A stretch of DNA of 64,000 nt from Eledone cirrhosa (lineage: Eukaryota), in the NCBI GenBank assembly GCA_964016885.1, contig OZ024766.1:12276001-12340000 (forward strand), given 5' to 3'. The stretch's first letter is position 1; every line of letters starts with the position of its first letter. Shown here in pieces: positions 45,191-51,851 of the stretch. The notes under the pieces are model-generated. The model searched no databases and was not told where the DNA came from. It worked only from the letters and a program-made list of their open reading frames with translations. A program made the translations under genes and the position numbers.

Positions 45191-45194
<4 letters not shown>

Positions 45195-46023
45195 GAGAGG
45201 TATAGAGATTGTTTTAGCGAGAAGCTAACAGCATTCTATAACATATATGTGACTATAACGTCAAGATGGGAAAAGTAGTTAACGTAAGATTTAGGAAAAA
45301 TAATTCAAACTCATCTCAAAAGAGAATCAGGATACAAATTCATCCACTAGAATTTAGTGAAATCCAGGGAAAAATCAATAGACCCTTAACTCATGAAAAA
45401 ATAAAGTTTAAAACACTTATCCTTCAATTTGGAATAACATCAAATGCTCTGTATAGTCTTAAAAGACTATTTCATGAAAACTTTCAGTCGAGATGGTCAC
45501 GGTTGGATTTCATTCATCAGCAGAGCTCAACAGAAAACCAGGGCTCTCACAGTATTATAATCCGAAAAAGGGAATTCTAAAACTGGCTAGTTCGCCATCA
45601 TGTGTAGTTATGAAAAAGCACATGGGGAAAAGGGGGGCTAGTGACGTCAGGATGTAAGTGAATGTTTATTTACAAGAAATAGCAGTCAAATACATTCTGA
45701 AAAAAACTCTACAAAAGGAGTTCAGCAAAATAGCAATAATTATCACAGTTTTTATGAAAAAAACCGGGATTAGTCACGGATAGTTTAAGCACTCTAGGAA
45801 AAGAATCCGAGTATAAATATAAATGAGAGGTATAGAGATTGTTTTAGCAAGAAGCTAACAGCATTCTATAACATATATGCGACTATAACGTCAAGATGGG
45901 AAAAGTAGTTAACGTAAGATTTAGGAAAAATAACTCAAACTCATCTCAAAAGAGAATCAGGATACAAATTCATCCACAGAATTGAGTAAAGTCCAGGGAA
46001 AGATCAATAGACCCTTAACTCAT
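45191..46023 (-). mobile_element. Non-coding partial-tandem element, family O (630-bp period)
   Basis: 45191-45393 is repeated at 45821-46023; canonical hammerhead inside. Confidence 0.88.
45446..45526 (-). ncRNA. Canonical type-I hammerhead ribozyme (family O)
   Basis: GCTCTG-CTGATGA-ATGAAA..TTTCAT-GAA-ATAGTC(TTTTAA)GACTAT-A-CAGAGC: three 6-bp Watson-Crick stems, intact core, AUA cleavage triplet. Confidence 0.88.
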
Positions 46024-46272: not shown

Positions 46273-49200
46273 CTACAGGATGGTATACAGAGAAGGCCCA
46301 TTTACACGAGCCATTCTCGCCACTATCACCCACCTTTCATAAAACTGCCTGTGGCCAAGCACCTCTCTCTCCATTCTTATCCTTCTTCCGAAGTGATATC
46401 GGAAGAAGTAGACCAGACTATGGCCAGAGAGGAAGTTGCCTGACCTCAGACCTTTCAATCGTGTCCACCAAACAACCTCTTTCAACATGGCTATTACGCA
46501 CAGAAAAACCGCCTTTGCTTCCTTTGTGAAGAGGGGAGGCGGTTTGATTGTCATCACGGACTCGGCGGTCAATTTAATCGGCGCCACCCGCGACAGCAGT
46601 TGTTCGGCGTAGCCCCACAGATCAGCCACGCCCGGACATTGCACCAATGCGTGCGCCACGGTTTCTTCGTGACGCACGCACTTTTTTGAGGGATCCCTGC
46701 CCGGGCGCCCGTGTCTGTAGAGCCTCTCTCGAACGGGTAGAGCCCCTCGGTAGCACTGCCAGGCCAGTGACTTCTGGAAGTTGTCCATTGGTCCTGGGCC
46801 GAAAGTCCTACCGAACAGGCTGGCCAGTTCGTCTTCTTCCATGTCCAGCGACTCTCCAAGGGTGTCATCGCCCCTGCTAGCCACCAGCCCTCTATAGAAT
46901 GATGAGGTGGATTCTCCACCGATGGCCCGGCCCGCTTGCCAGAGAGCCCTGAGCGCCTGAGCACACTCAGTGTGCCAGTCTCCCAGTTTTCCGGATCTTT
47001 GCTTGACCCAGGACTGTAGCTCGGTGAGTGAGACGAGTCTCGGAAAGGCTCGTTTCACGAACGGAGCCCACACCGGTTGACCAGTGAGGAATACCTGTAG
47101 GTGCCGTAGCCTTAATGCGTGCCTACGCATCATCAACCACGGCATCCCCAGCCCTCCTTTCGAAGGTTGTTGGCAGCAGATGGATCTTCTCACCATAGGA
47201 GGACGCTTCTTCCAAAGAAATTGGAAGAGCATGCGTTCCATGGTGGTGAGTGTTTCCTTAGGGCAAGGCACGACAGTCAGGCGGTAGTAAGTGACGGACG
47301 CTATGTAAATGTTCGCCACCTCCGCCCGGCCTTTTAGGGACAGCTTACACTTGGCCCATTTCTGGGTTAGTGCAAACACCTTGTTCGTAACCTCGTTCCA
47401 GTTCTTTTCCACCTGGAGGTCCGGTCCAAACCAGACCCCAAGCAACTTTACCGGGCCCTCCGTCCAGTGTCCGACGACACCGTCAGGAGGCATCGGTTTG
47501 CCTCTCCACGTTCCGAGTTGCAGCCCGATGGATTTTTCCCGGTTCAGTTTCGCTCCTGACAACCTTTCGTACTCCTCCAGTAAGGTACCGATCGCCTCGA
47601 TCTCCGAGTCGGTTGATACCATTACTGTTACGTCATCGGCGTAGGCCGACACCGCTTTGCTCAATCCTGGTTCCAGGGGGATACCCTGCAACAACTCCAA
47701 CTTCCTCAGTAAAGGCTCGAGAGTCAATACGTACAGAAGGGAGGAGAGAGGGCACCCCTGTCGAATGGATCGTGTGATTTCGAACGGCTTCGAAAGGTAG
47801 CCGTTCACCTTGATCCTAGAACAGATGTGGTTGCTATGTAGGGCAGTGATCCAGCCTCTGAAAACAGGACCGAACCCAGCCGCCGCTAGCACCGCATCCA
47901 GGTAACCATGGTCGACCCTATCGAAGGCCTTAGACTGATCCAAGTTGATCAGGGCCCCACCGAAGCCGGGTTTGTTGCCAACCCTCTCTATGATGTATCG
48001 CATGAGGTGGAGGTTATCGTGAATGGACCTGGATGGGATAGCACATGTCTGCGCATCTCCCACCAGGCCACCCACGACAAGCGCCAACCTCTTTGCTAAC
48101 ACCTTGGCCAAAATCTTTAACTCTGTGTTTAGCAGGGTTATGGGCCGAAAATTATTTATACTATCCCCCTTGTTCTCGTCCTTCCTCACCAGCGTGACTA
48201 CGCCCTTGGCTACAGAACAAGGAATTCTCCCGTTCTGCTGCCAATTGCAGTAGACCGCTTCGAGGAGTTCGGAGAAGAAGACCGGCATTGCTAAATAAAG
48301 TTCGTAAGGTATACCATCGAGACCTGGAGATTTGCGTCTGCTGCATTGGCTCAGCGCATCTCCGATCTCATCAGCCGAGATTGGTCCCTCGCAGGATTCC
48401 GCCTCTTTGTTCGAGAGACGCGGCAGGCCGTCGAGGTATGGACCGAAATCCACGCCCCGGCCCGGACCCTCGCCTCCCCCGAACAATCGGGCAAAGTGCT
48501 TTTGAAAGGCCTCGCACATCTGCTTAGGCTCCCGGATCACTCGTCCATCTTCGTCTTGCAACGACCGGATGGTGGATCGATTTCCACTTTTAGCTTCTGT
48601 CACGCGGGCCCATCCAACGGCTTTGGCCCCCTCATTACCTAGAGCACGTATTTTACTTCGAATGACGCAGCCTTCATGCTTTGCATCGAAAAACTGGTTC
48701 AAGGCCGTCCTCGATGCCAGCACTCTGGCCACATCTTCGCTCTTGATTGCCTCTTCTAATTTACCTGTTAATTCTTTCTCGTTTCTATTCCTATTGGCAG
48801 CTAACATCTTGCTATAACTTATTGATTCTGTTCTAATCTCTCTTTTGAGAGATGCCCACCATCGGTTGTTGACGATTGCACCCGTCAACCTCTCCTTAAC
48901 TAATCTGCTAATCCGGTTTCTGTAAGTCTCTTTTGCCGGTAAAGACAAATTAAGTTTCCAGTAACCGGGACCCTGTCTATGTGTTTTCTCGAGATTGACC
49001 ACGCAGGTCACTAATTTGTGATCCGTGTAGCCAACCGTGCGCATTTCGGGACAGCTTAATATGTCCCTATCCTTACTTCTAACTAAGAATCTATCTAAGT
49101 ACGATCTAGATTGACCACTGTGGTTTCTCCAAGTCCAGGTAGGCACAGTTGGAAAATCTAGTCGATATCTATCGACCAAGTTAAAACGGTCGAGTAACCC

Positions 49201-49698
49201 CTTGAGGCTGTTACACCCCCCTCTATTAGGACATGCTCCTGCATAGTCCCAACGTGCATCTAGGATGTCATTCCAATCCCCCGCTAGAAGCAGGGAACGC
49301 GACGTTCCCAGAAAAGTCTCCAAACGCTGGAAGAAGTCGGGCCGTTCAGCTCCGAAAGGGGAGTAGACGGCGACCAGTCTCAAGGCCGCACTTTCACTAC
49401 TGCCAACGTCTAGCACCAACAAACGACCCTCCGGGTCCGAGTGCACAACCTGTACGGCAAGACCCAGGTGTTTTTGCAGCAGCACGACAACCCCACCCCC
49501 ACCTCCAGGTTGACAGAGAGATGCATGCACCTCAAAGTCATCGAAGGTGGGGGCCAGCTGCCGCATGACGCTGATTCGAGTCTCACAGATAACCATTACA
49601 TTTATACTACATGACCTGAGGTCATTTAGAAGCTTTGCTTGCTTCCAAGTTGAGCCCAGGCCACGTGCATTCAAACATCCTACTCTTAACACATCCAT
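46273..49698 (-). CDS. LINE ORF2: APE endonuclease, reverse transcriptase and C-terminal Cys/His region (1141 aa)
   Basis: LNARGL, ICET, AGDWN, SYLDRF, TDH (APE); KSPGLDG, FRPITLLN, DQSKAFDRV, RQGCPLS, YADD (RT); GYWKLN and GGLG motifs of the L1/Tx1 clade. Confidence 0.97.
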   Translation of the reverse strand: MDVLRVGCLNARGLGSTWKQAKLLNDLRSCSINVMVICETRISVMRQLAPTFDDFEVHASLCQPGGGGGVVVLLQKHLGLAVQVVHSDPEGRLLVLDVGSSESAALRLVAVYSPFGAERPDFFQRLETFLGTSRSLLLAGDWNDILDARWDYAGACPNRGGCNSLKGLLDRFNLVDRYRLDFPTVPTWTWRNHSGQSRSYLDRFLVRSKDRDILSCPEMRTVGYTDHKLVTCVVNLEKTHRQGPGYWKLNLSLPAKETYRNRISRLVKERLTGAIVNNRWWASLKREIRTESISYSKMLAANRNRNEKELTGKLEEAIKSEDVARVLASRTALNQFFDAKHEGCVIRSKIRALGNEGAKAVGWARVTEAKSGNRSTIRSLQDEDGRVIREPKQMCEAFQKHFARLFGGGEGPGRGVDFGPYLDGLPRLSNKEAESCEGPISADEIGDALSQCSRRKSPGLDGIPYELYLAMPVFFSELLEAVYCNWQQNGRIPCSVAKGVVTLVRKDENKGDSINNFRPITLLNTELKILAKVLAKRLALVVGGLVGDAQTCAIPSRSIHDNLHLMRYIIERVGNKPGFGGALINLDQSKAFDRVDHGYLDAVLAAAGFGPVFRGWITALHSNHICSRIKVNGYLSKPFEITRSIRQGCPLSSLLYVLTLEPLLRKLELLQGIPLEPGLSKAVSAYADDVTVMVSTDSEIEAIGTLLEEYERLSGAKLNREKSIGLQLGTWRGKPMPPDGVVGHWTEGPVKLLGVWFGPDLQVEKNWNEVTNKVFALTQKWAKCKLSLKGRAEVANIYIASVTYYRLTVVPCPKETLTTMERMLFQFLWKKRPPMVRRSICCQQPSKGGLGMPWLMMRRHALRLRHLQVFLTGQPVWAPFVKRAFPRLVSLTELQSWVKQRSGKLGDWHTECAQALRALWQAGRAIGGESTSSFYRGLVASRGDDTLGESLDMEEDELASLFGRTFGPGPMDNFQKSLAWQCYRGALPVRERLYRHGRPGRDPSKKCVRHEETVAHALVQCPGVADLWGYAEQLLSRVAPIKLTAESVMTIKPPPLFTKEAKAVFLCVIAMLKEVVWWTRLKGLRSGNFLSGHSLVYFFRYHFGRRIRMEREVLGHRQFYERWVIVARMARVNGPSLYTIL

Positions 49699-49731
49699 GT
49701 GGGCGGCAGAGCCAAAGGAGAGTGTAGAGAC

Positions 49732-51609
49732 CTACCTTTCCGCTTCCCGGGGTTCGGGTTGCACGACTTCCATGGGGTCGGGGGTGTTGGGTGAAGGGGT
49801 GTCTTGTGGTGGTGTGGGGTCGTCGGTGTGTGGTGGGGTTGGGGTGTTTGGAGTTGTGTTGGGGAGGGGAAGGGGAGGGGGAAAGCTTTTTAGTAGGACG
49901 CGGTTTATGGGTTTGACAGAGGGTGGTCCTACGTCCTCCTTAAAATCCTTTTTTAGTTTTTGGTAGAGGTTCATTGGGATTTTTATTAGTTTTAAATGTG
50001 GGTGGTTTTCTGATGAAACAAAGTTTACACCTTCGGTTTGTACCGAAGGATTATTGTATATGAGTTCATTTAATTTATTATTGTTTCTGTTGATGTAAGT
50101 ATAGTGTAATGTCTTTTTTTCCGATGGTGTGAGTGTTTCGAAGAGGGGAGGGGCAGGTTTGGTTTTGTTTGTTGCTGGAGGGGTGTTTTCTGTTTTGTTA
50201 GATTGTGTTGCGATTTGGGTGGGGGTTGTTTGTCCTTGTGTGTTTTGCACATGTTTTCTTTTTTTCCTTTTAATCTGTCTGAAGGACTCCGTTTCTTCCT
50301 CCGAATTCGTTGGGTTATCTTCAGTGTTGGAGGGAAGAGGTATGTTTGCTGGTAATGTTTCCGTGTTGGTTTTCTTTGTGGGGGAGATGGATGTCACTAT
50401 GTTAGACTGTGTTGTGTGTTGTGTCTGCGGTGGTTGTGTTGTTTTATTGAGTGAGAGGTTGGGTGGGCCTGTATTTTGTTTTGGGGTAATGTGTTGTGAC
50501 TGTTTGTGTTGTGGTGGTGTTGTGGTGTTACTGAGGGACGGGTTGGGTGGGACTGAGTTTTGTTGTTTGTTTATCTGTTGTGGTGGTGGTGGTGGAGCTG
50601 GTGTTGGTAGCAGGGTTTTCTTTTTGTTGAGTTGGGGACAAGCGGCCTTCAGGTGCCCTCTGCCTGCACAGATATGGCAGGACGGCCTTCTCCCCTCCAC
50701 GCTAATGTTTATATACCCGTGGTCCTCTAATAGGATTCTGTCGGGTATTTGGGCGATGCGTTCAGGCTTCATTTGTACTACCAGCTCTATACCTGTTCCA
50801 CTGAACGCATTGCCTGTGGTTTTCCCAATGGAAATCACGTTGTCATTCACTGGATCGATGAAGCCAGCTATGAGCCAGCAGTAGTCCACATCTGGCATCA
50901 TTGCATCCAGCCATATGCGTTGAGTTTTTTTCCCCATATAAGATGGATAAAAGGTGAAATTTTTCGAACGAATCGGTGACAAAGCACATTTTTTTGCCGC
51001 CGATTCGTTCTTCATGATAATTGCTAGGCTTCCATACAGTCTGTCTTTTCTTATGAAAGTTGTTTCATTCAGTACTTCTGCGAGTACTGTTTTGATATCT
51101 GCTTGAGAAGGCTGTTCAGGTTTTTTTGTACTGTTGTTGATGGTCCGAAACTTGACCGTTCGGCTTTCAATGTCTTTCGTGAATTCTTGAGGCATTTTTA
51201 CCAATAAAATACCATTCTCACCTTCGCTTATGTATTGTTTTGCGTCCGTGATCCTTCGTACCACATCTGAAATGTTTTCCGCTATATAAGTCAAAGATTT
51301 CTTTGTTTTCTGTGCAAAAGAAATTTTGTCGTCTGCTTTGTTTTCTGATATTATGTTATTTTCAACTGTTATTTTTTTGTTTGTTGTGTCTTTGTTTGTG
51401 TTATTAGTATTGTCATGCAATTTTTCAAATTTTTTTTCTTCGTTGTTTTCGTCATTTAATTTTTTCTCCGCAGATTCGTCCGTTTTTATTTTCATTTTTC
51501 CTTCCTTCTCTATGACGTTAGTTGGGAAGGAAGGGAGGACTAAAGCGTGCGAGCTTACAACTCTTACCGCTGTCCCCCCACCACTATTTTCGTTCGCTGC
51601 GTTTAACAT
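49732..51609 (-). CDS. LINE ORF1 (gag-like, CCHC zinc knuckle, Pro/Thr-rich C-half; 625 aa)
   Basis: CHICAGRGHLKAAC knuckle; directly upstream of ORF2 on the same strand. Confidence 0.9.
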   Translation of the reverse strand: MLNAANENSGGGTAVRVVSSHALVLPSFPTNVIEKEGKMKIKTDESAEKKLNDENNEEKKFEKLHDNTNNTNKDTTNKKITVENNIISENKADDKISFAQKTKKSLTYIAENISDVVRRITDAKQYISEGENGILLVKMPQEFTKDIESRTVKFRTINNSTKKPEQPSQADIKTVLAEVLNETTFIRKDRLYGSLAIIMKNESAAKKCALSPIRSKNFTFYPSYMGKKTQRIWLDAMMPDVDYCWLIAGFIDPVNDNVISIGKTTGNAFSGTGIELVVQMKPERIAQIPDRILLEDHGYINISVEGRRPSCHICAGRGHLKAACPQLNKKKTLLPTPAPPPPPQQINKQQNSVPPNPSLSNTTTPPQHKQSQHITPKQNTGPPNLSLNKTTQPPQTQHTTQSNIVTSISPTKKTNTETLPANIPLPSNTEDNPTNSEEETESFRQIKRKKRKHVQNTQGQTTPTQIATQSNKTENTPPATNKTKPAPPLFETLTPSEKKTLHYTYINRNNNKLNELIYNNPSVQTEGVNFVSSENHPHLKLIKIPMNLYQKLKKDFKEDVGPPSVKPINRVLLKSFPPPLPLPNTTPNTPTPPHTDDPTPPQDTPSPNTPDPMEVVQPEPREAER

Positions 51610-51851
51610 TTCTGTTAGACGATTGAAATTTTTTTACACAAAATTTTTTTTAAAACAGGTTTTTCACCTCTAGGAGGGGTAAAGATGAGCTGACCCACCG
51701 CCTGACAGTTCAGACGGAGGGTCAAGCTACACAATTGTATCAAAATTAAGTTTGAACTCACAAAATTTCCTCAATAAATTTGAACAAAACTTCTGTGCGA
51801 AGTGAATGACATCCACACTGTAGAACAGACGACAGCTAGATTGTAAACATT

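Follow-up and report, generated by a model that had tools for sequence, protein, structure and literature searches.

The window, the stretch of 64,000 nucleotides of Eledone cirrhosa DNA analysed here (assembly GCA_964016885.1, contig OZ024766.1, positions 12,276,001 to 12,340,000 of the forward strand), contains beside a (TA)n microsatellite an insertion made of one 630-nt unit and 203 nt of a second unit, together a 1.3-mer (Table 1). Unit positions are numbered m1 to m630 along the minus strand, with m1 at window position 45820 and m630 at 45191. The repeat starts at 45191 and again at 45821, from where it runs to 46023, and its two copies differ in 8 of 204 columns (96% identity). The 630-bp period, which an earlier sequence-only reading had called exact, is therefore real but imperfect, and falls to 629 over the last 46 nt through one indel. 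That reading was right to place the ribozyme outside the terminal repeat of about 200 bp, which is a truncated second unit and not an LTR. It was also right in seeing no credible open reading frame: an ATG frame of 104 aa, on the opposite strand of the window unit, is absent from the other 14 units examined and has no Pfam match, and a circular six-frame scan of 15 units found no frame conserved across subfamilies. The CRE-like palindrome TGACGTCA that it had pointed out is present in most units of five subfamilies but missing from the oldest, subfamily F. The window copy carries a single ribozyme and thus cannot release a monomer; it is a product, or dead end, and not a monomer source.

Table 1. 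Features of the insertion and of related sequences in the window (m, unit position along the minus strand)
Feature	Position	Strand	Remarks
Terminal full monomer, m1-m630	45191..45820	-	45191 is the family's fixed 3' end and the putative reverse-transcription start
Second unit, 5'-truncated, m427-m630 ("direct repeat")	45821..46023	-	not an LTR
(TA)n target microsatellite	45146..45190	.	abuts the fixed 3' end
Predicted hairpin	45201..45240	-	ends 10 nt short of the fixed 3' end; pair probabilities 0.75-0.96
AU-rich tract at unit junction	45811..45820	-	comes after the fixed end in the RNA; candidate microhomology with (TA)n
CRE-like palindrome TGACGTCA	45642..45649	.	candidate role only
Type I hammerhead, m295-m375	45446..45526	-	three 6-bp stems, complete core; covariation support
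Hammerhead stem I (6 bp)	45526-45521 with 45451-45446	-	
Hammerhead core CUGAUGA	45520-45514	-	
Hammerhead stem II (6 bp)	45513-45508 with 45479-45474	-	
Hammerhead GAAA	45473-45470	-	
Hammerhead stem III (6 bp) and A-U core pair	45469-45464 with 45459-45454	-	triplet AUA
Predicted cut	between 45452 and 45451 (m369/m370)	-	
Further hammerhead-like motifs	21416-21482, 22132-22196, 59075-59129	+	descriptor
Further hammerhead-like motifs	~59015-59069, 22319-22380, 21253-21319, 2957-3001	-	descriptor
Tx1/L1-like LINE	46273-51633	-	frames of 633 aa (zinc-knuckle-like motif) and 1,152 aa (endonuclease-RT-zinc domain)

Two features near the fixed end may bear on the start of copying. The hairpin predicted by folding is a candidate recognition signal for the reverse transcriptase, and shows one compensatory pair, m585-m616, in subfamily F. 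The AU-rich tract at the unit junction could provide microhomology with a nicked (TA)n target; identity between junction and target reaches 4 nt in the window copy and is longer in subfamily B. Beyond the target, another short repeat end lies between two (TA)n runs at 45045-45140, and similar sequence flanks several other loci, which indicates that several families use such (TA)n targets. The interval 42518-44776 is occupied by a 49-bp minisatellite of 46 copies, with related sequence in many other loci.

The hammerhead was found where the sequence-only reading had put it, with the three 6-bp stems described there, and is of type I on the minus strand. The hammerhead descriptor retrieved eight motifs in the window against 0.1 per shuffled 64 kb, and none of 20 shuffles gave a match with stems this good. 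The 93-nt hammerhead fold is not unusually stable (z -1.26), folding stability differs among subfamilies (z -1.3 to -4.8, 25 shuffles), and no Rfam hammerhead match was obtained at the gathering cut-off or at E values up to 10. Between subfamilies A and F, differences affect none of 11 core columns and 16 of the 81 ribozyme columns, against 193 of 549 columns outside the ribozyme, and across four subfamily clusters the ribozyme varies in 6 of its 81 columns, compared with 112 of 549 outside. Compensatory changes occur at the stem pairs m297-373, m300-370, and m309-346; the variable core position is T, G, or A. Selection on the ribozyme is thereby supported, although subfamilies C and F have a U-U mismatch in place of the first stem II pair and stem II occupancy in the predicted circle is low; from conservation and covariation the RNA is predicted to cleave itself. 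Such retention of the ribozyme would be unexpected if it destroyed a linear template. The other seven hammerhead-like motifs of the window, with a short helix III, come from other repeat families found in many loci, so that hammerhead-bearing elements are common in this stretch; some of the seven form inverted pairs, a Penelope-type arrangement.

Related copies are abundant in the 3.0 Gb genome that was searched. The monomer search returned 2,970 candidates, 40 of which were scored and yielded 80 matches at 94-100% identity. An exact 20-mer of the 3' end occurs 6,876 times, setting a lower bound on family size, whereas an exact ribozyme 18-mer occurs 2,271 times and an exact junction 28-mer, a probe that fits some subfamilies only, 317 times; reversed k-mer controls gave no occurrences. 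Six subfamilies with units of 625-638 nt were recognized, at identities to the window of about 97% (A), 91% (E), 87% (C), 84% (B), 83% (D), and 66-69% (F, for which the alignment used three of ten loci, the boundary rule leaving out seven). Fifteen units have a GC content of 0.32-0.34. Three sequencing runs of one sample also contain the family, as fragmented contigs that are uninformative on expression or circles.

The ends of these copies are strongly asymmetric. For 215 distinct insertions both flanks were available, a sample biased by queries most of which contained the 3' end; 204 of them end at m626-630, and 192 of these 204 then carry at least three AT repeats; three or more AT repeats also precede 144 of the 215. 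Picks made by the ribozyme motif only gave 30 loci representing 28 insertions (three loci being segmental duplicates of one event), of which 27 end at m628-630. The 5' ends are scattered over the entire unit, insertion polarity agrees with the ribozyme strand, and copies span from about 0.05 to at least 13 units: 116 of the 215 insertions measure one unit or less, 76 consist of two pieces, and 23 of three to eight. An optional tail of 30-40 bp, as left by a second start site, was seen in none of the 215. A fixed 3' end with a variable 5' end is the signature of Penelope target-primed insertion, and the circularly permuted ends that had been proposed for the window copy do not describe the family, in which only the 5' end varies. 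Fixed LTRs are refuted by the length of the repeat, which tracks 5' truncation among copies. On the point raised by the sequence-only reading, the copies compared are ORF-less multimers and not LTR-bounded elements around a coding interior. A "mini element" of 50-57 nt proved to be the early-truncated 3' end of the family.

Longer arrays, of 5 to at least 13 units with local duplication, also exist, and a hammerhead is present in each repeat unit of multi-unit arrays (L093-L097, L280-L298), while loci with at least two ribozymes are a minority (1 of 28 insertions by the strict motif). The longest (L281, G000:C1:82126500-82136400) holds at least 13 diverged units, extends beyond the stretch retrieved, and has alternating units with a broken ribozyme core. 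Duplication that followed insertion best accounts for the arrays with periods of two or three units. Several arrays alternate as A-B-A-B, the B unit of L281 and L286 having a broken core, but dimer circles were rejected as the cause: in L280, L286, and L289 the partial unit at the 5' end does not keep phase with the alternation, and L289 alternates with both ribozymes intact. Opposite-strand pairs of family copies lie close together at three loci (L017, L097, L210), like inverted Penelope insertions. At four others (L230-L232, L291) the 5' junction holds an inverted copy of nearby upstream flank in a segmentally duplicated locus, and the 5' junction shared by L230-L232 reflects segmental duplicates.

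Enzymes of the appropriate kind are encoded in the same genome. The PF01541 (GIY-YIG) profile gave 10,596 candidates, and Penelope loci contain frames of up to 938 and 1,096 residues in which a reverse transcriptase (RT) is followed by a C-terminal GIY-YIG domain, with a CX4CX2C linker (Pfam matched only the RT in the 1,096-residue frame); this is the Neptune/Nematis layout as described in the accessible text of Craig et al. (2021, PMC8557442). In three autonomous Penelope families, as in the monomer, the end is an internal AATAT tract that abuts (TA)n, and two of the three show an optional tail that the monomer lacks. Autonomous RT and GIY-YIG elements with the same kind of end thus share the genome with a family that itself has the features of a non-autonomous Penelope-like element, namely a fixed 3' end, 5' truncation, partial tandems, and a microsatellite target. 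Mobilization of the family by Penelope machinery is considered very probable. At one locus (L224, G000:C1:14077005-14080022) a full monomer is joined without spacer to a 5'-truncated Neptune 3' end that is 98% identical to L101/L111 and carries its own minimal hammerhead; this single case may record a switch of template, or else a monomer that landed in the final TA of a target common to both elements. Fifty Penelope loci (L061-L090, L098-L117), part of 150 listed among the 10,596 candidates and a small fraction of the Penelope elements of the genome, contained no ORF-bearing parent with clear similarity to the monomer, and gave only a 23-nt antisense match (E 0.01). This match, to one Neptune ORF end, has no protein-level counterpart, and with frames that are not conserved a hidden coding frame or endonuclease relic was rejected. 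The Penelope ORF beside L189/L192 was likewise dismissed as a parent, since it lies on the opposite strand, shares about 25% identity with the query proteins, and is separated by a microsatellite (in L189, the one read).

What was copied can be read from the insertions themselves, which run across the cut site as well as the unit junction. Of 1,615 exact 27-mers that begin at the cut, 1,506 continue six bases across it, a loss of about 1% per base that is no more than ordinary divergence, and 5' ends at m365-375 number 0 of 204. The self-cleaved linear monomer was therefore not the template, and it is this population record of insertions that rules out cleaved linear RNA. Units within an insertion are also homogeneous: two-unit insertions of subfamily A are discordant in 6 of 224 diagnostic comparisons, where unrelated units would be expected to give 91.9, and those of subfamily B in 1 of 34, where 7.7 would be expected. 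The 5' ends cluster at an internal ATATAT (m573-574; 44 of 215, a count inflated by one query) and at m342-352, the boundary between stem II and GAAA (16 rows, 14 after collapse of duplicates, with about 2.6 expected). The second cluster possibly marks a stall at the folded ribozyme, to which sampling and AT microhomology could add.

With slightly better than even confidence, the window copy is read as a 5'-truncated 1.3-unit copy of an ORF-less hammerhead retrozyme that was inserted into (TA)n by a Neptune-type Penelope enzyme, probably from a 630-nt circular RNA. The retrozyme interpretation of the sequence-only reading is borne out by ORF-less head-to-tail multimers, a selected ribozyme, and copying across cut and junction, and with every sequence-testable feature present the family is likely an animal (metazoan) non-LTR retrozyme. 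A circle is preferred as template, narrowly above an even chance, because the ribozyme has been selected over the long term, units are homogeneous, and there is precedent in mussel and coral. In the proposed cycle, the minority of loci with at least two ribozymes would be transcribed, their hammerheads would excise a monomer beginning at m370, and a host ligase would circularize it. A GIY-YIG endonuclease would nick (TA)n, and the nicked strand would pair with the AU tract beside m630, priming copying inside the RNA next to the hairpin. The enzyme would mostly drop off early, with the internal ATATAT (m573) and the ribozyme core (m342-352) as frequent stopping points, and would sometimes circle more than once to leave 1.x-mers like the window copy, while longer arrays would grow later through local DNA duplication.

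The most serious competitor, to which we assign a clearly smaller though real chance, keeps the same family and Penelope enzyme and has the enzyme copy uncut linear RNA transcribed from a tandem array, with any circles as side products and arrays renewed by unequal exchange. It is retained because arrays of the required kind exist, with their local duplication, and because uncut RNA was the dominant substrate of the one Penelope protein tested in vitro, for which ribozyme mutants left insertion unaffected (Frangieh et al. 2024, PMC11167929, accessible text); local amplification is also favoured in the available part of the preprint of Li, Clavereau, and Pollet (bioRxiv 10.64898/2026.07.22.740005). 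Uncut transcripts of genomic arrays leave the same product, so a 1.3-mer does not by itself prove a circle. Read-through of the cut would fit an uncut multimer, and homogeneity would too, given a homogeneous source array. The window pair, the most discordant of 22 subfamily A pairs (3.8%, including two diagnostic sites), counts against a circle and in favour of the uncut array; a low predicted stem II occupancy (probability about 0.12 in the predicted circle) and the subfamily-dependent fold stability also count against the circle. Further points against the preferred reading are the in vitro cleavage of only one of nine Xenopus retrozyme dimers, the want of clear similarity between the monomer and an ORF-bearing Penelope among the loci searched, and the missing two-site tail. 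Three observations, each of low power, speak against the uncut array: a multi-site unit-specific haplotype recurs in 0 of 96 multi-unit insertions, no common 5' flank appears in 34 junctions without a TA run (barring segmental duplicates and array units), and the hard 5' limit expected from a start site is not seen. The keeping of the ribozyme over 30% divergence is also harder to explain on that account.

It is improbable that an autonomous Penelope element escaped the search and that the copies represent its 3' fragments (pseudo-LTRs). Most copies are shorter than one unit, such fragments show a fixed end and truncation, Xenopus retrozymes resemble pseudo-LTRs (bioRxiv 10.64898/2026.07.22.740005, as far as its accessible text goes), and the genome comparisons covered the best or first matches listed. 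However, in each of the six subfamilies the copies that exceed one unit run on into another 630-nt unit of the same kind, and a junction with a Penelope ORF is seen in none of 228 insertions, the nearest same-strand match stopping about 490 nt away. Mobilization by a LINE is less probable still. The two-frame Tx1/L1-like element just upstream on the same strand, with endonuclease, RT, and zinc-binding domains, makes it conceivable, but that element sits between (GATA)n-type repeats and not (TA)n, its end is missing from the 5' flanks inspected for other copies, and the 630-nt unit has no A-tail and is copied from an internal start; lying in another microsatellite, the LINE is probably a mere neighbour. 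A satellite that spread as DNA and carried the ribozyme as a passenger, to which the long arrays with higher-order periods lend some colour, has the faintest prospect of all and is for dispersal largely refuted by one-sided polarity matching the ribozyme strand, by dispersed single insertions in (TA)n, and by compensatory changes in RNA structure, holding for array growth only.

Several published systems share features with the family; what follows on each, except where PMC7761336 alone is cited, reflects the accessible portion of the source. The non-LTR retrozymes of animals have units of 170-400 nt, with circular RNAs in coral, mussel, and axolotl and tRNA ligases favoured for their circularization (Cervera and de la Pena 2020, PMC7229834). 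They are likewise ORF-less, low-GC (34% here) tandem units bearing a type I hammerhead whose helix III is stable, a trait reported for most invertebrate retrozymes (PMC7761336). They likewise lack LTR, PBS, and PPT and co-occur with Penelope elements, and the model put forward for them, too, has copies of more than one unit made from a circular template. The Eledone unit differs in its 630 nt and in being known from DNA alone, and its fixed start site, (TA)n target, and truncation profile are not among the features reported there. Plant-type LTR retrozymes, in contrast, carry a type III hammerhead in fixed LTRs and make a 4-bp target duplication, whereas here the hammerhead is of type I, outside the repeat, and no LTR is fixed.

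The Penelope link of retrozymes is argued both in PMC7229834 and in bioRxiv 10.64898/2026.07.22.740005. The latter, sampling 31 vertebrates, three insects, and one anthozoan, describes non-LTR retrozymes as Penelope derivatives of 51-972 bp (mean 650 in ray-finned fish), so that the 630-nt monomer, noted by the sequence-only reading as larger than metazoan retrozymes of a few hundred nucleotides, falls within published sizes. The same preprint reports pseudo-LTR homology in 24 of 57 Xenopus families and in vitro cleavage of one of nine Xenopus retrozyme dimers. The Eledone family resembles those described there in size, in its monomers, dimers, and multimers, and in its Penelope partner, but differs from the Xenopus families in that the search turned up no parent with an ORF and the unit has lasted on its own through 30% divergence. 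Neptune-clade elements and the non-autonomous Chlamys/MRC1 (PMC8557442) likewise form partial tandems, are 5'-truncated, carry a hammerhead near the 3' end, show a microsatellite bias that masks target duplications, and have multicopy head-to-tail non-autonomous forms; the Eledone unit, by contrast, has no ORF, a full helix III in place of a minimal ribozyme, and no 30-40 bp tail. The Poseidon element PAc of Anolis (PMC11167929) likewise starts reverse transcription internally near a stem-loop and uses an AT-rich target, but there two starts, no homology to the cut DNA, and an uncut RNA substrate are described, whereas the Eledone family shows a single start with AU/TA microhomology. In Octopus vulgaris, active Penelope families are described, and the word "hammerhead" was not found in the accessible text of that repeat paper (PMC13282606).

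The class, its size, and its Penelope link are thus already published, and the window family adds an unusually clear mechanistic record. Circles are proposed as Penelope templates in PMC7229834, PMC7761336, and bioRxiv 10.64898/2026.07.22.740005, whose available text names no start site or target and shows no mobilization; the literature searched yielded neither an account of this family nor a retrozyme with a fixed start, though supplements or repeat libraries may name the family. A bolder possibility, tentative and placed somewhat short of even, is a long-lived viroid-like lineage of RNA circles: a 625-638 nt ORF-less unit with a functional monomeric hammerhead and a single origin of replication, kept through 30% divergence without a coding parent and parasitizing Neptune enzymes by rolling-circle target-primed copying. 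If this were so, the thousands of insertions would log the enzyme's start, its read-through of the ligated cut, and its stall at the folded ribozyme. Because the start site is fixed, the circle-template model is directly testable, with a start at m630, a (TA)n target, a cut site 261 nt away, and long open frames for candidate enzymes encoded by this genome (L098, L100).
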